DNA from: a virus
Reading direction: 5' to 3' (one strand)
DNA: 64,000 nt
IMG/VR virus record: IMGVR_UViG_3300026197_000002
Span: 1-64,000 of that record
Shown here: piece after piece, positions 1-31,885 of the stretch
Layout: every line of letters begins with the position of its first letter
How positions within the stretch are numbered: position 1 is the first letter of the stretch
The notes under the pieces: model-generated
Seen by the model: only the letters and a program-made list of their open reading frames with translations
Database searches by the model: none
Told to the model about the DNA's origin: nothing
Position numbers and translations under genes: made by a program

Positions 1-83
1 GAATAAAACGGCTTATAAGAGCCGTAGGATAAATAGTAAAAAGAAATAATCAATAACTCTTATTTACGAATTAAAGTAGGATT

Positions 84-296
84 ATGGAAAATTTATTAGG
101 TAAAATGGTACAAGTGAGAGTTCCTCTTAGGAGTAATAACTTTCCTTGTAACCCTACAAACAGGTTCACCACCGTAGTAGGTGTGTGTAAATTCATAGGA
201 GTAAATGAATTACACGGCAACTTTCAAGTTACCATAGGTAGAACTCCTATATGGTATGAAGGGTTTACATTATCTGATGTAACTCTTGTGGTTTAA
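84..296 (+). CDS. hypothetical phage protein
   Basis: 70-aa ORF on the coding strand with ATG start. Confidence 0.7.
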   Translation: MENLLGKMVQVRVPLRSNNFPCNPTNRFTTVVGVCKFIGVNELHGNFQVTIGRTPIWYEGFTLSDVTLVV

Positions 297-317
297 ATTT
301 AAAACATTATAAATTAT

Positions 318-2496: not shown

Positions 2497-2700
2497 ATGA
2501 GCAAAAAATTAAATGAGTTACAAGAATCAATACCTGATGAAGCACTTATAAAAGAAGCAGAAAAGCAGATATTTGAACTTGCACGCACAGGCGGAAAAAG
2601 CCATAAAATGTGCGTACCCCCAATGCCTGATGATACAGATATGATATTGAGTGAACTTGTTAGAAGATATAAAAAAGCAATAGACCTAGCATCTGTATGA
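2497..2700 (+). CDS. hypothetical protein (start moved to ATG 2497)
   Basis: gaaaaATG context; MSKKLNELQESIPD...MCVPPMPDDTDMILSELVRRYK. Confidence 0.7.
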   Translation: MSKKLNELQESIPDEALIKEAEKQIFELARTGGKSHKMCVPPMPDDTDMILSELVRRYKKAIDLASV

Positions 2701-2704
2701 ACGC

Positions 2705-2737
2705 AAACCTCTACAATTAATTTTGTAGAGGTTTTTT
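2705..2737 (+). terminator. intrinsic terminator
   Basis: 12-bp stem aaacctctacaa/ttgtagaggttt followed by a T-run, just after the stop codon. Confidence 0.85.
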
Positions 2738-2742
2738 AACAT

Positions 2743-3557: not shown

Positions 3558-4379
3558 ATGAAAAATATTAAAATGATTGAAAAAATAAAAGACCTGCTTT
3601 TTTCAGGAGATTCACAAAATATAGAACTCGCTAAACAGCTTGCTGAGAAATTGCCTGATATAAAAAAATACATTGGTAAACTTGAAAAGTTGGCTAAACA
3701 ACTGAATATAAACTTTATTCAGTTATCTCAAGATGACTTAAGGTTATCAAAAAAAAACTTAACCACTTTACCAAGTGAAATTGGTTTACTTAAACATTTA
3801 AAAATTATTTATTTAGGACACAATCGGATAACAAGTTTACCCAAAGAAATCGGAGATTTAAAGAATTTGGAGTATTTGTGTTTAAAAAATAACCATATCA
3901 CAACTTTACCTAAAGAAATTGGCGATTTAACAAAACTAGAAAAGCTAAATTTGAAACATAACCAACTTTCAGCATTACCTGAAGAAATAGGCAACTTAAA
4001 AAATTTAAAAGTTTTAAGGCTAAATAAAAACAAAATTGCAAGCCTACCAAAAGAAATTGGTAAATTACTGAATTTGGAGTGGTTACTTTTAAATAATAAT
4101 CAACTTTCAAAATTACCAAAAGAAATATGCAATTTAAAAAGTTTAAAAGGTTTAGATTTATTTAGTAATCAAATTACAAACTTCCCCAAAGGAATTGACA
4201 AATTAAGTAATTTAGAAAAGCTAGATTTTGAAAAGAATGAATTTACAAGTTTGCCTAAGGAAATTGAAAAGTTAGAGAAATTGAGAATATTTTTATTTCA
4301 ACAAAATTACTTAGATTGGAAAGAAGAAGATTGGAAAAAGCACCTTTGGCTAACCTGGCAAAGAGGGAGAATAAAATAA
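3558..4379 (+). CDS. leucine-rich repeat protein
   Basis: About 8-9 tandem 23-aa repeats LPxEIGxLxxLxxLxLxxNxLxx. Confidence 0.95.
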   Translation: MKNIKMIEKIKDLLFSGDSQNIELAKQLAEKLPDIKKYIGKLEKLAKQLNINFIQLSQDDLRLSKKNLTTLPSEIGLLKHLKIIYLGHNRITSLPKEIGDLKNLEYLCLKNNHITTLPKEIGDLTKLEKLNLKHNQLSALPEEIGNLKNLKVLRLNKNKIASLPKEIGKLLNLEWLLLNNNQLSKLPKEICNLKSLKGLDLFSNQITNFPKGIDKLSNLEKLDFEKNEFTSLPKEIEKLEKLRIFLFQQNYLDWKEEDWKKHLWLTWQRGRIK

Positions 4380-17973: not shown

Positions 17974-18475
17974 TGAAAAAAGAAGATTATTAGCATCTAC
18001 TTTTAATAGTAGACAAGAGGTTTTTGACTTTTTATCAGAGCTTATTATTGAAATAAATGGAAAATATAAAATAGATGGAACATTATCAGAACTATATAAT
18101 ACAATTCCAACTGTTGATACACAATTATCAGAAACAGAAATGGATAATGAATTGTCAGTTGTACCTAAATTAAGTTTTACTGAAACTGTTAAAAGATTTA
18201 GAACTTGTATAGGAAACCCTATGAGGTATAATAAAGATACTAAAAAATCTTATAGTATTGATGGAATAAATAGTAATACTATGAGGTCATTACGCAGTTT
18301 ATATAATAAAGGTATATTTAATCAAGAATTTATAGAAAATGCTAGGAACTACTATGGTGATATAGAATACCCTGTTGGACTCAATAGGTATATAACAGAT
18401 AAACTATATGATTCAAATTGGTCTATCAGTAAAAAAGATAATACTACAGGCTTAACAGGTTGGAGTAAAAGATGA
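17954..18475 (+). CDS. hypothetical protein, possible replication initiator/helicase loader
   Basis: Position directly upstream of and coupled to the DnaB-like gene; no firm motif. Confidence 0.6.
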   Translation: MKNMKDSEKRRLLASTFNSRQEVFDFLSELIIEINGKYKIDGTLSELYNTIPTVDTQLSETEMDNELSVVPKLSFTETVKRFRTCIGNPMRYNKDTKKSYSIDGINSNTMRSLRSLYNKGIFNQEFIENARNYYGDIEYPVGLNRYITDKLYDSNWSISKKDNTTGLTGWSKR

Positions 18476-22152: not shown

Positions 22153-22163
22153 TATTCTAATAG

Positions 22164-22195
22164 AAAAAGATAGTATTTATAGTACTATCTTTTTT
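22164..22195 (+). terminator. intrinsic terminator
   Basis: aaaaagatagtatt-tat-agtactatcttttt. Confidence 0.8.
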
Positions 22196-22215
22196 ACTTT
22201 AACTATCATAACAAC

Positions 22216-23265
22216 ATGTTTAATATATCTACTACACCAAGTGATGTAATTACTAACCCTATACAATTAATTAGAGAAATTGAAAGTAAATATTCTCAAA
22301 TAGAATTAATGGAGTACTTTCTACAATGTGAGGTATCTGATAAATTAATACCATTAGATGCTTACAGAGAAGATGAATCTCCTAGTTGTGGGTTTACATT
22401 AGTAGGAAATAGATTATTCTTTTCTGATTATGGTACATATATTTATGGAGATTGGAAGGTAGCAGCATCATTATATTATCAATATATTTCTATTGATGAT
22501 AGTAGTACTAATATACCTCAAAAAGATTATACAGAACTTATTAGAAGATGCTATGATGACCTAGTTCTATCTAGTAATATAATAGAAATACCTAGGGATA
22601 TATTAAATAGTAAAATTAAATGTTTAGATAATAAATTTAAAAGTGATACTTTGATTGAAGTATCAGTAAGGTCTTATAATAATAAGGATTTACAATATTG
22701 GTATCCTATATCAAAAGAGTTATTAATAGATGAAGGTGTTTATGCTATAAATAAAGTGTGGATTAATAAAGCTATTATGCCTAAATTATCTAACACTAAT
22801 AATAATCCAACTTATGGATATAGATATGCTAATATTAATGTATCTAAGTGGAAAATATATAAACCTTTGGATTCACAGTATAAATGGAGAAATAATACAT
22901 TACGTAATAGGATAGATAAATCACCTAATAAAGATTATAATAATGATACTCCTAAAATACTATTTACATCTAAAAAAGATAGGTTAGTATTTAGGCAAAT
23001 GTTATTAAAATATAACTTAGATGATGAATATTATACGTATAATTATCAAAGTGAATCTTATATTCCAGATAATCTGCTAGGAAATACTAGGTATATGTTG
23101 AGGGATATGGATTATCCAGGATTACAATATAGTAGACAATTAAAAGAACTATTTAATATTAACATCTTAGAACTTCCTGATTGTAAAGATGTGTATGAAT
23201 ATGTTAAAGTATATTCTATTGATGAATTGTATAAATTATGGAAGAAATGGATGAGCAAGATTTAA
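22216..23265 (+). CDS. dnaG: DNA primase (crAss-type, TOPRIM)
   Basis: REDESPSCGF...FSDYG N-terminus; KIYKP, KWRNN, TSKKD, QSE, DMDYPG, KDVYEY. Confidence 0.85.
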   Translation: MFNISTTPSDVITNPIQLIREIESKYSQIELMEYFLQCEVSDKLIPLDAYREDESPSCGFTLVGNRLFFSDYGTYIYGDWKVAASLYYQYISIDDSSTNIPQKDYTELIRRCYDDLVLSSNIIEIPRDILNSKIKCLDNKFKSDTLIEVSVRSYNNKDLQYWYPISKELLIDEGVYAINKVWINKAIMPKLSNTNNNPTYGYRYANINVSKWKIYKPLDSQYKWRNNTLRNRIDKSPNKDYNNDTPKILFTSKKDRLVFRQMLLKYNLDDEYYTYNYQSESYIPDNLLGNTRYMLRDMDYPGLQYSRQLKELFNINILELPDCKDVYEYVKVYSIDELYKLWKKWMSKI

Positions 23266-23685: not shown

Positions 23686-23991
23686 ATGAAAATAAAAAAA
23701 TTAAATATTTTTGAAGAAATATCTCAAAAATTGATTGGTAAAAAAATAGTATATTATGAATTACTTGAAAAATATGATAATAATAAGTATGATAAAATAT
23801 CTAGGGTTTTTGAACTAACTGATAACCAAATAGAATTAGCATTAAAAAATAATTATCATATTGTTGTAAAGACTGATACTATTGTAAATGTTAGAGAAAC
23901 TACATTAGAAGAGTTTTTAGCATTTATAGAATTAGAATCTTCTACTTCTTTATTTTTAAGATTAGATGATACAATAACTATAATTAAATAA
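23686..23991 (+). CDS. hypothetical protein
   Basis: 101-aa ORF. Confidence 0.7.
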   Translation: MKIKKLNIFEEISQKLIGKKIVYYELLEKYDNNKYDKISRVFELTDNQIELALKNNYHIVVKTDTIVNVRETTLEEFLAFIELESSTSLFLRLDDTITIIK

Positions 23992-24329
23992 TGGATATAC
24001 AAGAACAATCTAAAATATCATCTGTACTAACATTGTTACAGTTTTCATATAATATAGACTATATAAAAGATTCATTATTAAATAATACGTTCAAACATGA
24101 AGTTAAAAGGGCTTTTAATCAATTAATAAAAGCCAATGATGTATTTTTGAATAAGATAATGAAACACTTTAATAGTGATACTGCTAATGTAATAAATGAA
24201 GATTCTGACCTATTACTAGATATAACTTTGTTAATTGTAGGAAATCCTAGATTTGTCAAGGATAGACTACAAGAATTAATAGAAAACTTTGTAGAAGAGT
24301 TAAAGTCAGAACAAAAATTGGATAATTAA
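23991..24329 (+). CDS. hypothetical protein
   Basis: 112-aa ORF, TAATG-coupled. Confidence 0.75.
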   Translation: MDIQEQSKISSVLTLLQFSYNIDYIKDSLLNNTFKHEVKRAFNQLIKANDVFLNKIMKHFNSDTANVINEDSDLLLDITLLIVGNPRFVKDRLQELIENFVEELKSEQKLDN

Positions 24330-24348
24330 TAAGTATTATATATATTTG
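24318..24348 (+). promoter_or_regulatory. Bacteroidota sigmaA promoter (-33 TTG, -7 TAnnTTTG)
   Basis: TTG 24318-24320, 20-nt spacer, TATATTTG 24341-24348. Confidence 0.75.
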
Positions 24349-24352
24349 TATA

Positions 24353-24442
24353 GTTGTGATAGTTAAATAGAGTTTAAGAAATCGTTTTTTGAGTGTATTC
24401 TTTGTATTAGCAGAAGGAAGTCCTAGACTTCCTTTTTGCTTT
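24353..24442 (+). ncRNA. candidate ~90-nt small RNA antisense to the primase translation-initiation region
   Basis: Lies between promoter and terminator, contains no ATG; 24353-24367 pairs with 22198-22212 (14 Watson-Crick pairs, 1 G-U). Confidence 0.65.
24409..24442 (+). terminator. intrinsic terminator
   Basis: agcagaaggaagtc-cta-gacttcctttttgct. Confidence 0.8.
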
Positions 24443-24631
24443 ATATAGCTATTATAAAATTAACTTAGATATTATGAAAACAATAAAATATTATCCAGAA
24501 TTTTGGTATAAATTAGAATATGAAGTAGAAGAATTAAAAATTACATTTAAAGCATGGAAAATTATTCTATTAAATGAGGATAATTTAAAGCATATAATAC
24601 AGTTTTTAATACATTAAAAAAATAAAATTAA

Positions 24632-25354
24632 ATGGATATTATAACCAATTTACAAGAATTACAAGCATCTGACCAATATATTAAATTAAAGAATGGTAAA
24701 CATCATAGAATGCCACATCCACAAGATATATTGTCAGATTTTAGTAACAACTTAGGTATTAATAAAGAAGATATAGATGTTACTCTAGGTAATAAACAAG
24801 TTAATGGAACTGACAAAGGTGACTCTATTAGCTACAAGTCTTACCTATTAGAATATACAGTACCCGATTATGATTATGAAGGTCATGAAGGTAAAGTAGG
24901 AGCTGTAATCTCTAATACTAAGGATATTATTACAGTATATGCAGGAGCAAGAGCAACTGCCTGTTTAAACCTTATGGTATTTGGAGCTGATGCTTTAAAT
25001 ACTGCTGATATTAGTACTGCTGATATATCTAAAATGTTATCATTTATTAAGATTAAGTTAGAAACTAATAAAAATAAATGGTTAGATGATATACAGCGTA
25101 TGAAAGATACAACGTATACTGTTACAGAAGATTTTAATATGAGAAAAGGTGAAATTCTTAGTAATATGAATACTACCATGCTACCTTATGTAGTACATGC
25201 AGAAAAACAATTACGCAACAAGGATAGTCTATATTATCCTATGCCTGACAGTGATTGGAAATTGTTTAGTGCTATAACTGATTATAATCGTAATAGAGGT
25301 GTAGATAATCAACCTAATGAGATATTGAAGATTCAAGACTTATTCTTAAATTAA
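24632..25354 (+). CDS. DUF932-like conserved crAss protein
   Basis: VYAGARATACLNLMVF motif; C-terminal WKLFSAIT. Confidence 0.65.
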   Translation: MDIITNLQELQASDQYIKLKNGKHHRMPHPQDILSDFSNNLGINKEDIDVTLGNKQVNGTDKGDSISYKSYLLEYTVPDYDYEGHEGKVGAVISNTKDIITVYAGARATACLNLMVFGADALNTADISTADISKMLSFIKIKLETNKNKWLDDIQRMKDTTYTVTEDFNMRKGEILSNMNTTMLPYVVHAEKQLRNKDSLYYPMPDSDWKLFSAITDYNRNRGVDNQPNEILKIQDLFLN

Positions 25355-25355
25355 T

Positions 25356-25547
25356 ATGGAAGTTCACTTAAAGAAATTAATATGTGGAGAATGTGGAGAA
25401 GAAAAACATTTATTGTTTCAACGTTCAAATGGTGAAATATTGGTGAAATGTATAAAATGTAAAAATGTAAGTGATATAAAAATAACTAAACCTAAGATAG
25501 TTATTGGTAATGTTTCAGGGTTAGGAATTTTATGTCCAGAATCTTAA
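25356..25547 (+). CDS. zinc-ribbon protein
   Basis: CGEC...CIKC. Confidence 0.75.
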   Translation: MEVHLKKLICGECGEEKHLLFQRSNGEILVKCIKCKNVSDIKITKPKIVIGNVSGLGILCPES

Positions 25548-25554
25548 AGTATAT

Positions 25555-25634
25555 AAACAGTAACCGAGTGTTGTAGCCAGCATTCATATAGTGTTTAGGG
25601 TAAGGTATGAATATAACCTTACCCTTTTTTTTTT
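25555..25634 (+). ncRNA. candidate structured RNA ending in a terminator
   Basis: 8-bp stem gagtgttg-tagc-cagcattc, closing helix aaaca/tgttt, then terminator. Confidence 0.45.
25597..25634 (+). terminator. intrinsic terminator
   Basis: 10-bp stem agggtaaggt/accttaccct followed by a T9 run. Confidence 0.9.
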
Positions 25635-25658
25635 ACAAGTTAAAATAAAAAATAAATA

Positions 25659-25934
25659 ATGAAAATAGAAAATAAAAAAAGATATATTATAGTACAAGAA
25701 TCTGGTTTTGTAAGAATTGGTGAAGTAGTAAGAAACAATCATCAAATTTTTGGAGAAGTTTATACAATTACTAATAATTATATTATTAGAGTTTGGGGAA
25801 CTAAAAATGGATTAGGTCAATTAGCTACCCAAGGCAAAACGTCAGCAACTGTCCTTGATTACGAAGGTACTACACATATTCCTGTGAAAAAAGTATTACA
25901 CTTTATAGAAATTAAGGAAGGAGTGAAACTGTGA
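25659..25934 (+). CDS. conserved small phage protein (DUF6948-like)
   Basis: IIRVWGTKNGLGQLAxxG...VLD motif; followed by a Gly-rich gene, as I recall for this family. Confidence 0.7.
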   Translation: MKIENKKRYIIVQESGFVRIGEVVRNNHQIFGEVYTITNNYIIRVWGTKNGLGQLATQGKTSATVLDYEGTTHIPVKKVLHFIEIKEGVKL

Positions 25935-26287
25935 ATATGAGTAATAGTAGCGTTTACGATATGGTATTTTCTGATGAAAAGCAAAACAAAGAGCTTGGTT
26001 TAATGCTCCTAGAATCACAAGGAATTAAAAATGTTTTCTTTGGTACAAAGTATGATGCAGGGGGTGATGGATATGGTGATGGGTATGGTGAAGGATATGG
26101 TGATGGCAACGAGTATGGCTTTGGTGACTACTATGATGAAGGTAATGGCAAAGGGTATGGCTACGGTATAGGTTATGAAGACGGTGATGGTGGAGGTTAT
26201 GGTTATGACTACGGTTATGGTTATGGCTATGGTTATGGTTATAATAATAGTGATGGTGATGGATATGTTATGGGGGAGGATTGGTAA
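25931..26287 (+). CDS. Gly/Tyr/Asp-rich repeat protein
   Basis: GDGYGDGYGEGYGDG...GYGYGYGY low-complexity tract (about 26060-26270). Confidence 0.8.
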   Translation: MNMSNSSVYDMVFSDEKQNKELGLMLLESQGIKNVFFGTKYDAGGDGYGDGYGEGYGDGNEYGFGDYYDEGNGKGYGYGIGYEDGDGGGYGYDYGYGYGYGYGYNNSDGDGYVMGEDW

Positions 26288-26997
26288 TGGATATACTAAT
26301 AGAAGAAGCCAATATTCAAACTTATAAGTTTGAATATGAAGGGATAGACTTTAATGTAGATATTACAGATGTTGATACAGAATCTGTAGGAGCTTATGAA
26401 TTATGTGTACCTACCATATTTGTATTAATGATGTGTAATTTTTATGATAATCCAAACATAAACGAAATAGAGGAAGAATTATCTGATAACTATTATAAAG
26501 AATATTATACCGATAATGCCGATAATATAATACTTATTTTAAATTACTTAATTTTATATTATGATGAGCTAGTAGCTTTACATTTTAATTTAGAAGTAAA
26601 GATTAAAACTGAACACTTAACTTGGGTATTACATGATATATTGCATGCAGAATATGATGTTTCAGAAAGTGGTATATATACTTCTAATTACGGTGAAGTA
26701 GATAGAATAGTAGATTCTTGGGATGAATATTTATTCATACTTGATGACTATAATATTCCATTTACAAAAAAGGATTTAAAGACTTTTTTAGAAGTATATG
26801 AGGCTAAATCTTTTAGAATAAAAGATGATGTTAGAGATAATTTAAGAAGTAGATTATATGATTTAATAAGTGAAACATCTGTTAAATCAGAATATATAGA
26901 TGCTTTTATAGAAAATAGATATTCAGTAGAAATAGATACTGAATATAGTAATAAAGTAACAAACTTAGAAATATATGAATATGATGAAGAAATTTAA
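26287..26997 (+). CDS. acidic hypothetical protein (start moved to ATG 26287)
   Basis: TAATG coupling; HDILH possible metal-binding motif. Confidence 0.75.
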   Translation: MDILIEEANIQTYKFEYEGIDFNVDITDVDTESVGAYELCVPTIFVLMMCNFYDNPNINEIEEELSDNYYKEYYTDNADNIILILNYLILYYDELVALHFNLEVKIKTEHLTWVLHDILHAEYDVSESGIYTSNYGEVDRIVDSWDEYLFILDDYNIPFTKKDLKTFLEVYEAKSFRIKDDVRDNLRSRLYDLISETSVKSEYIDAFIENRYSVEIDTEYSNKVTNLEIYEYDEEI

Positions 26998-27187
26998 AAG
27001 AAATGATACAGTGGTATATATACCACCATACTTAGATACTACAGATATTAAACATAAATTAGCTGAAATATCTAAGGTAATAGAAGTGTTGAGTAAAGAA
27101 TATCTTTATATAGAAAATATAAAGAATGGTACACAAAGAGTAATACACATAAATAATATATATTATGACAATAGAGGAAGTAAATAA
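26975..27187 (+). CDS. small hypothetical protein (SH3/KOW-like pattern)
   Basis: FKRNDTVVY...KVIEV pattern. Confidence 0.6.
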   Translation: MNMMKKFKRNDTVVYIPPYLDTTDIKHKLAEISKVIEVLSKEYLYIENIKNGTQRVIHINNIYYDNRGSK

Positions 27188-28442
27188 TAAATTTAAAAAT
27201 CTTTCTGAACAAGATAGGAAATACTTTAATACTATTGGATTATCTAATAGTTTCTTGAAACATATCAATAATCATTGTTATAAAAGAACTTTTGATAAAG
27301 TTATTGAATCATCAGAAGGAGTAAAAGAAGGGTATGCTATATGGAGGGGTAATCAAATACATAATGTATTATATGACCCAGAATATATTAAAAAGTTTTG
27401 GTATATTAAAGTTCCTGAAATGAATAATAGAACTAAAATACCTAACATATATTATGATTTATGGTCAATAGCTGCAACAGATTTTAGATTTAAAGTTAAT
27501 TATGATGATTTAGTATTAGAGAGATATTGTATTCACTATAAGTTAAAGAATGATTATAAAGATGCAAAAACTTTATATGAGCTACTTATAGAAATGAATG
27601 AGAAAGGTGTTGATAATTTTAAAGAGTTATATGCAGCTTATACAGATAGTTGTAAAAAAGAAGTTAGAAAAATATATGATTTAAACTTAATGTTTAAAGA
27701 TAGTTTATTTGAATATTATGATAAAAAGAATCAACCTGGTACTATATGTCTTAATGAAGTAGGTAATGATAAAGGTAGGTATTTTAAAGATTTAAGTGAG
27801 ATACACGATTTTCTTATATTACTAGAATCTACAGTAACTATGCTAAATAGTAATGAGGAATACCTAGAACTTACAAGTAAACCTGATGGTGATGGTAAAT
27901 TTGTTAAATTGATAGAACAACCTATTGTAGTTGATATGGAAGATGAAGTTTTTAAGATTAAACCTGATTTCTTATCTTTATATTACACTGATAATAAAAT
28001 AGTAATAACTTTATTAGATTATAAAACTTATGTTGGTAATATTTTAGAAAAGATAATTGATAATAGATATATTGACCAACTATCATTATACTTAGAAGTT
28101 ATATTAAAATCTTATAGAAGTTTATTAAAAGGTCGTACAGTAGAAATAAGAACGGCTATTGTAGGAATACACGATAGTGGTTATAGTGAAGTTATTAATA
28201 TACATCAATACTCTTGTATGGCTTGTATGAATGACTATACTTTACAAGAATGTATGTTGAAAGATGGTATGTTTAATCCATATAAACCTGTTGAAAAAGA
28301 GTATAATGCAATAGATAATCCTTTTATTGTAGCCTACTTAAATATAGATTATAGATATGGTTTGAAAACCTTAATTGAGATATATAAGAAACATTTAAAA
28401 GATAAATATTATTATGAACTTGACGGAAGAATTTTTAACTAG
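27165..28442 (+). CDS. PD-(D/E)XK exonuclease-like protein
   Basis: GLSNSFLK, GNQIH, EQPI, KIKPD, LLDYKT, YxxQLSLY. Confidence 0.85.
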   Translation: MTIEEVNNKFKNLSEQDRKYFNTIGLSNSFLKHINNHCYKRTFDKVIESSEGVKEGYAIWRGNQIHNVLYDPEYIKKFWYIKVPEMNNRTKIPNIYYDLWSIAATDFRFKVNYDDLVLERYCIHYKLKNDYKDAKTLYELLIEMNEKGVDNFKELYAAYTDSCKKEVRKIYDLNLMFKDSLFEYYDKKNQPGTICLNEVGNDKGRYFKDLSEIHDFLILLESTVTMLNSNEEYLELTSKPDGDGKFVKLIEQPIVVDMEDEVFKIKPDFLSLYYTDNKIVITLLDYKTYVGNILEKIIDNRYIDQLSLYLEVILKSYRSLLKGRTVEIRTAIVGIHDSGYSEVINIHQYSCMACMNDYTLQECMLKDGMFNPYKPVEKEYNAIDNPFIVAYLNIDYRYGLKTLIEIYKKHLKDKYYYELDGRIFN

Positions 28443-28710
28443 CATTGCTAATGGTGGTACAAGAGCTGTAATACTTTATACATTATTACATAATATGTTA
28501 AAAGAAACTGAATCTAAAAAACCTGTTGAATCTAAGAACCCCAAAAAGGAGATTAAATCTATGGGATATACTATGATTAATAAAATAGAAGAAGTTATTA
28601 ATGAAGAAAGAGATACGTTGAATCTAAATTCAGAAGATGAAAGTTATTTATTTAAGATATTCAGAGAACCTTTAATAAAAATAATAAATGAATATTCATC
28701 TGCCAAATAA
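28414..28710 (+). CDS. hypothetical protein
   Basis: 98-aa ORF. Confidence 0.7.
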   Translation: MNLTEEFLTSIANGGTRAVILYTLLHNMLKETESKKPVESKNPKKEIKSMGYTMINKIEEVINEERDTLNLNSEDESYLFKIFREPLIKIINEYSSAK

Positions 28711-29230
28711 AAACAATTATCCTCACACTATGTCTACATATTTATTATTACCTTTAGCAGGTCTTAGTAAAACCATGTTTAAGGGATTATATAACGTATA
28801 TGTAGACCCTGTTGAATTACAATTACATGTATTTTGTAAAGTGGAGAATAGTAAATATGATAATTATGTTAGAAAGTATAATCATATTATTGATAATACA
28901 ACATACATTTGTTATATTTATTCAATAAGGCAAAAGAATCATAAATACGCATTAAAACTTTTATCAGGTGAAGGAAGTAAGATACCATTAGCTATAAGAG
29001 ATTATATAGCACAAAATAGTGGACTTACTTATAAGAAATATACAAAGAATGGTTATATATCAGATTATATAGTTTATTGTCTTATAGATAATAAAGAGTA
29101 TTTAACAATAATATATGAGAAGTTTTTTCTACCAATGTATGATACAATAGAAGAAGCTGAAAATGAATTTTATAATTCAGAACTAATCCCTTATATTGAG
29201 GGTGATGAATATATAAGTAATATACTATAA
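28688..29230 (+). CDS. conserved crAss-like hypothetical protein
   Basis: TxSTYLLLPL...NVY...GEGSKI pattern; located downstream of the nuclease. Confidence 0.7.
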   Translation: MNIHLPNKNNYPHTMSTYLLLPLAGLSKTMFKGLYNVYVDPVELQLHVFCKVENSKYDNYVRKYNHIIDNTTYICYIYSIRQKNHKYALKLLSGEGSKIPLAIRDYIAQNSGLTYKKYTKNGYISDYIVYCLIDNKEYLTIIYEKFFLPMYDTIEEAENEFYNSELIPYIEGDEYISNIL

Positions 29231-29231
29231 A

Positions 29232-29510
29232 ATGAATAAACAACTTTATGTTTCAGATGTTATTATTAAAAATGATAATGATGAAATAATATTAAAATTA
29301 GAAACCTCTATAATAAAAGGAGGTTTCTTTACTATACTAGATGATGGTAATAGTAAACCTGCACAAGGGTTTACTACCAATATAGATGTAGCTAATAAAT
29401 ACGCTTATGGATTTATTGATAGAGGTAGAGAATATGGCTATGTAGAATATACACATTTACCATGTTTTAATCATAAAGATATATGGTTTAGATTAAATGA
29501 TACAAATTAA
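29232..29510 (+). CDS. hypothetical protein
   Basis: 92-aa ORF. Confidence 0.7.
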   Translation: MNKQLYVSDVIIKNDNDEIILKLETSIIKGGFFTILDDGNSKPAQGFTTNIDVANKYAYGFIDRGREYGYVEYTHLPCFNHKDIWFRLNDTN

Positions 29511-29734
29511 TGAAAAATAACACACACTATTCTCAAAAAGATAGTAATTATGAGCCTTATAAAGTCATATCTAAATGGAATTTGAATTTTAATTTAGGAA
29601 ATGTTATTAAATATGTTGTAAGAGCTGGTAAAAAGAAGAATAATTCTTTGGAAGAAGATTTATTAAAAGCTAAACAGTATATTGATTTTGAATTAGAAAT
29701 GTATTATAATAATAAAGATAATGAAAAACAATAA
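29510..29734 (+). CDS. DUF3310 protein (T7 gp1.7-like nucleotide kinase family)
   Basis: HY...EP...FNLGNVIKYVVRAGKK...EDLLKAKQYI. Confidence 0.9.
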   Translation: MKNNTHYSQKDSNYEPYKVISKWNLNFNLGNVIKYVVRAGKKKNNSLEEDLLKAKQYIDFELEMYYNNKDNEKQ

Positions 29735-29903
29735 ATGTTTAAATTGTGGTAATGAAATTTATTCATTACTACCTAAAAAGTATTGTAATTCTAAATGTGG
29801 TTATAAATATAGAAATAGAAATGTAAAAAAGAATAAAAAGTTAAGAGCTTATTCTTGGAAAAAACAATTTAATTATAAAAGTGAAAAGCAATGGAACAAT
29901 TAA
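29721..29903 (+). CDS. small basic zinc-finger protein
   Basis: CLNCG...KKYCNSKC. Confidence 0.75.
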   Translation: MKNNKCLNCGNEIYSLLPKKYCNSKCGYKYRNRNVKKNKKLRAYSWKKQFNYKSEKQWNN

Positions 29904-30397
29904 TTTATTTGGTACTAGGATTATTGGGATTTTCTATAATATCACTGTATCAAAAAATTAAAAATGCAGTATTTTATTTTAGAAATTATATAAATTCTAA
30001 TAGTAACTTTACTGATGAAGAATATCTAAATATTAGAGAAGATTTAATAGCTAATTATAATAATATACATATAATACAGATAGAACAAGATATTCTTATG
30101 AATATCTCGGTTATTCTAGTATCTCTAGCAGTATATCCTTTTGGTCAGTATAGTTGGTATAGTTTATTAATATTACCTTTTGGATTTTGTGTTATAAGTA
30201 TATTTAATTATATATCTCAAAGATATATTAATGTTGGTAACAACTTAGATATAAATTATGAACCTAAATATACTGAATATTTAGAAGGTAAATGGAGAGT
30301 TAAACTATTTAGAGGTAAATACGGTAGATTATTACTTGGTATATTATCTACTATATATCTTATAGTTATATTATTAATTTTTAATGTAATATTATAA
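29891..30397 (+). CDS. multi-pass membrane protein
   Basis: About 4 hydrophobic segments. Confidence 0.75.
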   Translation: MEQLIYLVLGLLGFSIISLYQKIKNAVFYFRNYINSNSNFTDEEYLNIREDLIANYNNIHIIQIEQDILMNISVILVSLAVYPFGQYSWYSLLILPFGFCVISIFNYISQRYINVGNNLDINYEPKYTEYLEGKWRVKLFRGKYGRLLLGILSTIYLIVILLIFNVIL

Positions 30398-30663
30398 TGT
30401 GTAATCATAAATATATTCCTACATATAAGAAATGGATACCTACAAAAGATGGAAACTATATTAAGAAATATAGAGTACTTATATGTGAGAAATGTGGTAA
30501 AGATAAAATAAGTAAATCTCCTGAATCTAAATATAAAATTTTAGATGAAGGACTTAAAAAGATATACGATAAAGTATCTGAAAAACAAGAAGCCGAGTAT
30601 GTAAGAAATACTCATAAATTATTAGATAAATTCAACAATAAAATAGGAGATTTAAAATTATGA
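30397..30663 (+). CDS. small zinc-binding protein
   Basis: CNHKY...CEKCGK. Confidence 0.7.
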   Translation: MCNHKYIPTYKKWIPTKDGNYIKKYRVLICEKCGKDKISKSPESKYKILDEGLKKIYDKVSEKQEAEYVRNTHKLLDKFNNKIGDLKL

Positions 30664-31103
30664 TAGTAAAAAAAGTAGAAGAATGGATGACTAAGTTTAA
30701 TAGACCTTTCAATACAGATTCATCTAAAAAATTACAAGCAGCTTTTGAAATGTTTAAAGAAGAATATGAAGAATTATGTGAAGCAATAGCTAGGAATGAT
30801 GAAATTGAAATAATGGATGGTATAGCTGATTTATTATGGACAGTAATACAATATAGTTTTACCAAAGGTTATAACCCCACAGATTTAATAGATGCTGTAT
30901 ATGAAAGTAATATGAGTAAACTTATTACTGATAAAGAGCAGGGGGAACTAGAAGTATCTAAGTACAACTTGAATAATCCAGAAGTTGAACAGGTATTTCT
31001 TGAATATGATAATGATAAAGGTTATGGATACCTTAAACGTATTAGAGATGGTAAAATTAGAAAAACCTCTACATTTAAAGAACCTAAATTTATTACACCT
31101 TAA
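30660..31103 (+). CDS. MazG-like / PRA-PH NTP pyrophosphohydrolase
   Basis: EEYEEL, EIMDGIADLLW, VYESNMSKL, DGKIRK. Confidence 0.9.
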   Translation: MIVKKVEEWMTKFNRPFNTDSSKKLQAAFEMFKEEYEELCEAIARNDEIEIMDGIADLLWTVIQYSFTKGYNPTDLIDAVYESNMSKLITDKEQGELEVSKYNLNNPEVEQVFLEYDNDKGYGYLKRIRDGKIRKTSTFKEPKFITP

Positions 31104-31104
31104 T

Positions 31105-31305
31105 ATGAGAATTAGTAAAGTAATATTAGATAATCAAGATACTCCTGTTACTTGGGAGTATCTTAGATTTAAAGGTATTCCTGAAATGGACAGTGATTCC
31201 TTAGAAGGAATCATGTTTAATCAAGGATTGGTGTTTAAGACAGGAATTATAATAGATAGTGAGTATATAGAAACTTGGAGAATCCACATAATAAACAATA
31301 TATAA
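31105..31305 (+). CDS. hypothetical protein (start moved to ATG 31105)
   Basis: ATG 1 nt after the upstream stop; avoids a 119-nt overlap. Confidence 0.6.
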   Translation: MRISKVILDNQDTPVTWEYLRFKGIPEMDSDSLEGIMFNQGLVFKTGIIIDSEYIETWRIHIINNI

Positions 31306-31306
31306 T

Positions 31307-31822
31307 ATGATATTAGTAATATATGATAAGTTAAATGATTCAGCTGTTGGTGATAGAAAGTATATATTAGACGCTTTAAATAAACAGAACTATTATTTTG
31401 ATGATAGTCGTGTAATTGATGTTGAAGAATTATTCAGAAGTATGTTAGGAGATATTTCATACTCATATTTTTATTTTAATGAGTTTGCAAGACATATAAT
31501 AGAACATTACCCTGAAGTTATATACAATAGAATACTTGAAAAATATACAGTATTTAAAGATTCTAAATTAATTACTAATGTAAGCAGTAGTTATGATTTT
31601 ATAAATGATAAAATTGTAAAGGATAAAGTAGATTCTTCTTATAAAGAACCTCTTGTAATTCACCCTATTGTTGTTATAGATAGATATAATTATTTAAAAG
31701 ATATATTTAAGTCTGAATATATATTAACATGTAAAATTGATTGCATAACTAATGGTAAATTAGTTATAGCTGAATTTAATAATAATTTGTTAAAATACTT
31801 TAATAAAAAATTAGATGTATAA
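31307..31822 (+). CDS. hypothetical protein
   Basis: 171-aa ORF, last gene of the + strand block. Confidence 0.7.
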   Translation: MILVIYDKLNDSAVGDRKYILDALNKQNYYFDDSRVIDVEELFRSMLGDISYSYFYFNEFARHIIEHYPEVIYNRILEKYTVFKDSKLITNVSSSYDFINDKIVKDKVDSSYKEPLVIHPIVVIDRYNYLKDIFKSEYILTCKIDCITNGKLVIAEFNNNLLKYFNKKLDV

Positions 31823-31827
31823 AATAT

Positions 31828-31858
31828 AAAAGGAAGTTTAATAGACTTCCTTTTTTTT
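31828..31858. terminator. bidirectional terminator between convergent gene blocks
   Basis: aaaaggaagttta/tagacttcctttt inverted repeat with flanking A and T runs. Confidence 0.85.
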
Positions 31859-31885
31859 AGACCATAGCTCTACTGTATATTAATA

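Follow-up and report, generated by a model that had tools for sequence, protein, structure and literature searches.

A candidate small RNA gene in a crAss-like phage with a predicted 5' end antisense to a leader motif shared by several phage genes

The DNA analysed here (the window, 64,000 nucleotides) is the first 64 kb of a 92,710-bp single viral contig with a G+C content of 28%. The contig has a crAss-like layout, in which a plus-strand module at 1-31.8 kb encodes a helicase, a DnaB-like protein, an AAA_24 protein and MazG, and a minus-strand block contains a 5,392-aa ORF and the major capsid protein (MCP). The plus-strand module also encodes a 273-aa leucine-rich-repeat protein (window 3558-4379; LRR_14, E = 6.6e-33), an unusual cargo on the replication side. 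Approximately 270 bp are identical at both contig ends (window 38-307 and genome 92428-92697), representing either a direct terminal repeat or a circular-assembly overlap. The nearest MCPs across all collections are ~50% identical to that of this phage and the MCP of the nearest GenBank phage is 29% identical; in the MCP alignment, IMG/VR relatives reached at most 36% identity and short metagenome contigs 44-50%. Homologues of the primase-like protein included a 99%-identical set (P0001, P0004, P0005) and a 33%-identical one on a 100-kb ENA contig (P0002, P0016). Megablast and blastn searches of the locus against GenBank phages gave no match, and the downstream 240-aa protein, the primase and the MCP, used as queries against viral, metagenome and genome contigs, identified no close related locus. 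The locus itself is the spacer 24330-24473 of the plus-strand module, and the features considered in this study are as follows.

24318-24320, plus strand: -33-like TTG(G) element, within the final codons of ORF 23991-24329
24341-24348, plus strand: -7 box TATATTTG, of the Bacteroidota sigmaA type TAHHTTTG
24353-24373, plus strand: predicted +1 and single-stranded 5' seed, unpaired in the MFE fold, opening energy 1.8 kcal/mol
24374-24408, plus strand: middle of the predicted RNA, weakly structured in the fold
24409-24445, plus strand: predicted intrinsic terminator with hairpin (24409-24440) and U-rich tail TTTTTGCTTT, from the fold and a terminator scan
24444-24458, plus strand: degenerate sense copy of the leader motif with 3 mismatches, in the leader of ORF 24474
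24474-24617, plus strand: 47-aa ORF directly downstream, without a family match, the first gene for any read-through transcript
22163-22195, plus strand: AU-rich 15-bp hairpin between an A-run and a T-run, directly preceding the primase motif (-19.2 kcal/mol, z = -3.7)
22198-22212, plus strand: leader motif copy and predicted target site, 3 nt upstream of the primase ATG
22216-23265, plus strand: primase-like ORF of 349 aa, with 23-27% identity to crAss-like "DNA primase" genes by tblastn (best E 1e-10)
Genome 67443-68951, minus strand: MCP (PHROG 11589, E = 6.5e-65)

The original prediction read TTG-N20-TATATTTG at 24318-24348 as a promoter of the Bacteroidota sigmaA type with a start site near 24353. 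Indeed, the two elements are present in the sequence, separated by 20 nt and with aTTG instead of the consensus TTTG. The Bacteroidota sigmaA consensus is a -33 TTTG and a -7 TAnnTTTG (TAHHTTTG) (PMC6847099), and the G of its -7 box occupies position -5 (PMC6847099, PMC9723704). Because this published geometry sets the G of the -7 box at -5, the predicted +1 is 24353; both the published consensus and the geometry support a sigmaA-type promoter with a start there (PMC6847099, PMC9723704). The predicted +1 is also the first base of the inverted copy of a motif that recurs in the genome.

The whole arrangement could be a coincidence in a 28% G+C genome, in which the hairpin marks the end of the operon before it, the words that resemble a promoter are either inactive or drive read-through, and the complementarity is functionless. 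In line with this explanation, TTG-N18-21-TAnnTTTG was found 12 times genome-wide against 10.3 expected, which is no enrichment. However, six of the 12 full matches are intergenic, although intergenic DNA makes up only 6.6% of the genome, and all six are in sense orientation. These six form a promoter family, TTG[GT]-N19/20-TAT[ACG]TTTG, whose consensus is best fitted by the 24318 site (TTGG ... TATATTTGTA). The other five members precede structural-module genes, and the 24318 site is the sole member in the plus-strand module.

SigmaA-type promoters were also compared between this genome and three complete distant relatives, and their leaders measured 0-43 nt. A promoter of the same class precedes the ortholog of the "MAK..." gene in the three distant relatives, with its position kept. 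Among such promoters in the four genomes, only that at 24318 is separated from the next gene by a long stretch devoid of ATG together with a terminator. For 5 of ~22 sigmaA-type promoters in the four genomes, the predicted +1 is the A of an ATG, so that the +1 rule looks sound in these phages. Such cases lie at genome 70617-70651 (minus strand) and, in the relatives, at G001 81273-81303, G005 18138-18166, and G002 94413-94442 and 73798-73828, and leaderless mRNAs may be common in these crAss-like phages. A sigma-70 consensus scan of this genome was uninformative (110 sites versus 106 expected). In addition, GAACACCTC-containing words are repeated in large intergenic regions of the presumed early region (genome 86352, 86673, 87340 and 87844).

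Downstream of the promoter, the absence of ATG that had been noted between promoter and hairpin holds for both strands of the entire spacer 24330-24473. The strong hairpin and U-run were likewise recovered, at 24409-24445, where the terminator stem has 11-14 bp with 4 G-C pairs, a core GGAAGTC/GACTTCC (24416-24422 / 24426-24432) and a 3-nt loop, CTA. This is the sole plus-strand terminator-like site within 18-30 kb, and termination there would be expected to place the 3' end of the candidate RNA at ~24438-24444, giving a predicted length of ~88 nt. A twin terminator, built from the same stem words GGAAGT/GACTTCC, closes the plus-strand module at 31832-31858; the terminator AAAAGGAAGT-TTAATA-GACTTCCTTTTTTTT (window 31823-31860) lies between the convergent modules. 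Elsewhere, a hairpin (CAAACCTCTACA ... TGTAGAGGTTTT) with a T-run at window 2690-2740 encloses the word TAATTTTG and is probably a terminator rather than a promoter.

Searches for known RNA families gave no Rfam match, the best overlapping model, AS-pc01, reaching 19.7 bits against a gathering score of 79 (E = 7.8), and ARAGORN found no tRNA or tmRNA. An origin or primer RNA was rejected, as the cumulative skew has its turning points at 31.8 kb and 86.3 kb and shows nothing at 24.3 kb. A small ORF or type I toxin was also rejected, the spacer having no ATG and the downstream 47-aa ORF, translated and judged by eye, not being hydrophobic. A promoter and a terminator of its own and no ORF, as expected of a trans-acting sRNA, are thus found in the spacer, and the stand-alone unit of promoter, ~88 nt and terminator appears credible from the sequence.

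The segment following the predicted +1 belongs to a small family of related sites. The motif TTTAACTATYATAAC (UUUAACUAUYAUAAC in RNA form) has exactly three copies in the 92.7-kb genome, at 22198 before the primase, at 68954 before the MCP and at 65515 before a 414-aa late gene; each of the three is intergenic, reads in the sense direction and precedes an ATG by 2-16 nt. The name primase is reasonable for ORF 22216-23265 on the basis of the distant tblastn homology only; searches of this ORF against Pfam and PHROGs gave no match. A PWM scan returned five top sites, all intergenic, with scores of at least 16.7 against at most 12.7 for the rest. They consist of the three exact copies, one site before genome ORF 68993-70096, and 24353-24367, which is an inverted copy of TTTAACTATYATAAC with 1 mismatch and scores 21.1, compared with 21.7 for the primase copy at 22198-22212. 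Further sites are weaker: the MCP spacer has a second, tandem motif site, a sense copy spans the start codon of genome ORF 71894-74623, and degenerate copies lie upstream of three or four further genes. Copies with 3 mismatches, like that at 24444-24458, occur at chance frequency in the window (35 found versus 36 expected). For the inverted copy, chance is a poor explanation: counting both strands and allowing up to 1 mismatch, chance should give 0.031 extra motif copies in all intergenic DNA and 0.0008 in this spacer, and the copy begins exactly at the predicted +1. Viewed as an inverted member of this motif family, the complementarity is, judging from these sequence counts, non-random; and because TTTAACTATYATAAC is a repeated motif, the 5' end of the candidate RNA is predicted to pair with several start regions.

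The same order of a hairpin or T-run, then the motif, then an ATG is seen at the primase, again at the 65498 gene and, as a degenerate version, before ORF 24474. In the 21 kb examined of the relative WLWE01000033.1 (104.8 kb), no shared leader motif was found. Two other repeated elements were observed. The word TAAAATT (ATAAAATTA) occurs at most 45 nt upstream of 23 of 102 ORFs across the whole genome, against 2.2 expected, and is a general A-rich leader signature separate from the 15-nt motif. A perfect 22-nt inverted repeat (genome 66194-66215 / 67416-67437) surrounds the 372-aa gene 66219-67337, and its word AACTTAATAAAAT is seen again at genome 70103.

The sense motif also resembles the "epsilon" translational enhancer of T7 gene 10, UUAACUUUA. 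Both are short U/A-rich words that start with UUAACU and lie directly upstream of a phage major capsid gene, but the motif is longer and is present before non-structural genes too. By analogy, the likeness suggests that the sense motif could be a translation enhancer.

The proposed pairing of the candidate RNA with the primase leader was reproduced. Apart from one G:U, 24353-24367 (GTTGTGATAGTTAAA) matches the reverse complement of 22198-22212 (TTTAACTATCATAAC), giving 15 contiguous pairs that stop 3 nt short of the ATG at 22216. The predicted hybrid at this site has an energy of -16.7 kcal/mol, and opening the site costs 0.8 kcal/mol. By run length, however, the pairing does not stand out. 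Runs of at least 15 pairs (G:U allowed) between the 90-nt RNA and some one of 102 start regions arose in 53% of dinucleotide shuffles, exact runs of at least 11 with some start region arose in 41%, and exact inverted 11-mers between intergenic regions number dozens. These figures speak for coincidence, and the fact that the primase pairing is no better than shuffles in run length counts against an sRNA. Duplex energy gave a different result. Energies were calculated between the first 25 nt of the RNA and the start regions with 500 seed shuffles; full-length RNAduplex results for the 90-nt RNA were set aside for their long AU-rich pseudo-duplexes. The leader of the 65498 gene gave -22.4 kcal/mol (P = 0.002), that of the primase -19.5 kcal/mol (P = 0.006), that of the MCP, the third best, -18.5 kcal/mol (reached by the third-best target in 0 of 500 shuffles) and that of ORF 24474 -17.7 kcal/mol, whereas the best duplex per shuffle averaged -14.3 kcal/mol (sd 1.6). 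The shuffle comparison that had been suggested for the primase pairing therefore fails for run length and holds for the energy of the 5'-terminal 25 nt.

Natural controls agreed with the energy result. The genome contains 113 TAnnTTTG words; when the 25 nt downstream of every one were compared, the candidate ranked 1/113, for its best target and its third-best target alike. Predicted accessibility is high on both sides: opening the seed costs 1.8 kcal/mol and opening the targets 0.8-4.2 kcal/mol. Given these ranks and the placement of the promoter family and the inverted copy, a functionless coincidence is quite improbable. The leader of genome ORF 64254-65498, the minus-strand gene of 414 aa, would form 21 pairs that run 6 nt past the motif, and the MCP leader would form 16. 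In the three strong duplexes, every position that is not Watson-Crick is a G in the RNA opposite a U in the mRNA. These G:U-only exceptions and the extension beyond the motif at the 65498 gene weakly favour pairing at the RNA level, as far as sequence can indicate it. The targets differ from those originally proposed. The primase is not singled out, as the 5' end is antisense to a motif common to the primase, the MCP and the 414-aa gene and its strongest predicted partner is not the primase; moreover, the suggested secondary targets, ORFs 20466 and 15246, rank only 89 and 11 of 102.

Alternatively, the motif may act in DNA. In this case, TTTAACTATYATAAC would be recognised either by a modified or alternative polymerase, as a promoter specific to the phage, or by a phage regulator, as its operator, and the RNA complementarity would be a by-product. 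We consider this unlikely, but several observations agree with it. Over 15 nt the three copies do not differ at all; this length exceeds the need of an RNA seed and is typical of protein or polymerase sites, which also weighs against an sRNA. The recurrent order of hairpin or T-run, motif and ATG, seen at the primase, the 65498 gene and 24474, is the setting expected for a restart promoter; the copies in the MCP spacer are in tandem; the primase and the MCP have no sigmaA-type promoter directly upstream; and leaderless starts occur in these phages. If the motif were a promoter for leaderless mRNAs, it would be untranscribed at the primase and the MCP, and the RNA would therefore have no pairing partner there. 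The motif is, however, unlike TAHHTTTG, with 3 of 6 invariant positions fitting at the primase when +1 is set on the ATG. A role at the mRNA level is consistent with the placement of the four good direct copies, every one of which is in sense orientation at a distance of 2-16 nt from an ATG. An inverted promoter copy at 24353 would fire leftwards, antisense to ORF 23991-24329, and would serve no gene, and the position of an operator would vary, from +1 at one promoter and ~+13 at another to two sites without a promoter.

A further possibility, to which we give rather little weight, is that the spacer acts in cis as a leader or attenuator for the downstream genes at 24474-31822 and that the promoter serves that operon. 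In lambda, the 6S RNA of PR'-tR' is a promoter-proximal terminated leader that is read through by Q, and a promoter-proximal terminator in the spacer would similarly yield a short abortive transcript unless read through. The layout of a promoter, a terminator within ~200 nt and then an operon is present, and the downstream genes may need the 24318 promoter because it is the sole canonical host-type promoter in the plus-strand module. The likeness to lambda PR'-tR' would thus extend to a strong promoter, a terminator within 100-200 nt, a gene block beyond and a short abundant RNA. In contrast to lambda, neither a Q-like antiterminator nor a binding element was identified here, the candidate lies inside the replication module and not before late genes, and its 5' end is specifically complementary to other leaders. 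Pfam searches of the neighbouring ORFs gave nothing relevant to antitermination, and inspection by eye revealed no alternative pairing with the terminator arms.

RNA folding also speaks for a role in cis. In a read-through RNA, 24354-24365 would pair with 24446-24457 through 12 bp, including 3 G:U, with 7 more pairs; the MFE and centroid structures of 24353-24490 both contain this helix (z = -3.2), and none of 200 shuffles folds as well. The 3 G:U among the 12 pairs restrict the helix to plus-strand RNA, and both of its arms lie within any polycistronic RNA that crosses the spacer. The resulting ~20-bp helix around the terminator could mask the 24474 leader or be an RNase III-type site. The downstream arm, however, corresponds to 24444-24458, merely a 3-mismatch motif copy of the class that occurs at chance frequency. 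Bacteroidota leaders are also short, with a median of 24-33 nt (PMC9723704, PMC6847099), as are the 0-43-nt leaders of these phages. In addition, a role in cis does not account for the better match of the seed to the primase, MCP and 65498 leaders than to its cis partner.

We tentatively favour a trans-acting sRNA of ~88 nt that is aimed at the shared leader motif and not at the primase specifically, an explanation that rests on sequence and falls somewhat short of an even chance. In this model, the spacer 24330-24473 would be an independent non-coding gene, in which host RNA polymerase would start at 24353 from the Bacteroidota sigmaA-type promoter and stop near 24440. The first 15-21 nt of the RNA would be unpaired and antisense to the leader motif. 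Its targets in trans would be the mRNAs of the primase (22216), the MCP (genome 68951, minus strand, tandem sites) and the 414-aa late gene (genome 65498, minus strand), with weaker targets in the genes starting at genome 70096, 74623 and 24474. Pairing would modulate, and most simply block, ribosome access on this small set of phage mRNAs. The analysis shows the sequence features, the family of motif copies, a seed and targets predicted to be accessible, and duplexes stronger than those of the controls; transcription of the RNA, its 5' and 3' ends, in vivo pairing and the sign of regulation are inferred. A late-class promoter fits a late shut-off of the primase, but such a promoter would make the RNA alongside its late targets, the MCP and others, so that simple repression looks odd there. 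The three complete distant relatives lack a unit equivalent to the candidate RNA gene, which also argues against an sRNA. The spacers of the nearest relatives examined, with MCP identities of at most 50%, are too diverged to align with the candidate spacer, and an IMG/VR pattern scan for the -7 box and seed gave 29 matches, all unrelated.

In the bare outline known for crAss-like phages, a virion polymerase transcribes early genes and the host polymerase middle and late genes. [quoted passage not shown] Intergenic non-coding transcription, which for the candidate is a prediction, would be common to both, but the RNAs of phi14:2 are long, early, of unknown function and encoded in another genome region, and the two phages are very distant. 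The absence of any described equivalent had been overstated in the original prediction, given the known phage base-pairing sRNAs (10.1101/2024.10.31.621285, PMC12197685) and the 5'-seed sRNA GibS (PMC7366714). GibS of Bacteroides thetaiotaomicron is an intergenic trans-acting sRNA of ~145 nt, with a single-stranded 5' extended seed that acts on start regions (PMC7366714). Like the candidate as predicted, it has a Bacteroidota-type promoter and an intrinsic terminator in a spacer, a 5' seed and several mRNA partners in an AT-rich, Hfq-less setting. The candidate differs in being ~88 nt long and phage-encoded, in its predicted targets, which are phage genes with the 15-nt motif, and in having no sequence or Rfam relationship to GibS. 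LPR1/PreS of lambda is a phage base-pairing sRNA that acts on host mRNAs, enhances dnaN translation with Hfq in E. coli and affects phage replication (10.1101/2024.10.31.621285; reviewed in PMC12197685). It resembles the candidate as a short phage-encoded RNA proposed to tune replication-related expression by pairing, whereas the predicted targets of the candidate are phage mRNAs, including that of the capsid gene, and its host would be a member of the Bacteroidota.

If the RNA is real, it would offer a testable handle on the balance between replication and capsid production in this phage, and a phage example for the very small set of characterised Bacteroidota sRNAs. The link to the persistence of crAss-like phages that had been drawn earlier is speculation. 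The leader motif is of interest regardless of the RNA. The few genes that carry it include the structural gene with the highest expression, and in hosts without Shine-Dalgarno recognition the motif may act as a signal for translation or processing. It is conceivable, if doubtful, that one sRNA made from a late-class host promoter reads the 15-nt leader "address" and thereby co-ordinates replication and virion-protein synthesis post-transcriptionally. To our knowledge, no post-transcriptional regulator has been described in crAss-like phages; if this proposal were true, the RNA would be the first riboregulator described in Crassvirales, and a phage sRNA whose regulon consists of the phage's own genes.
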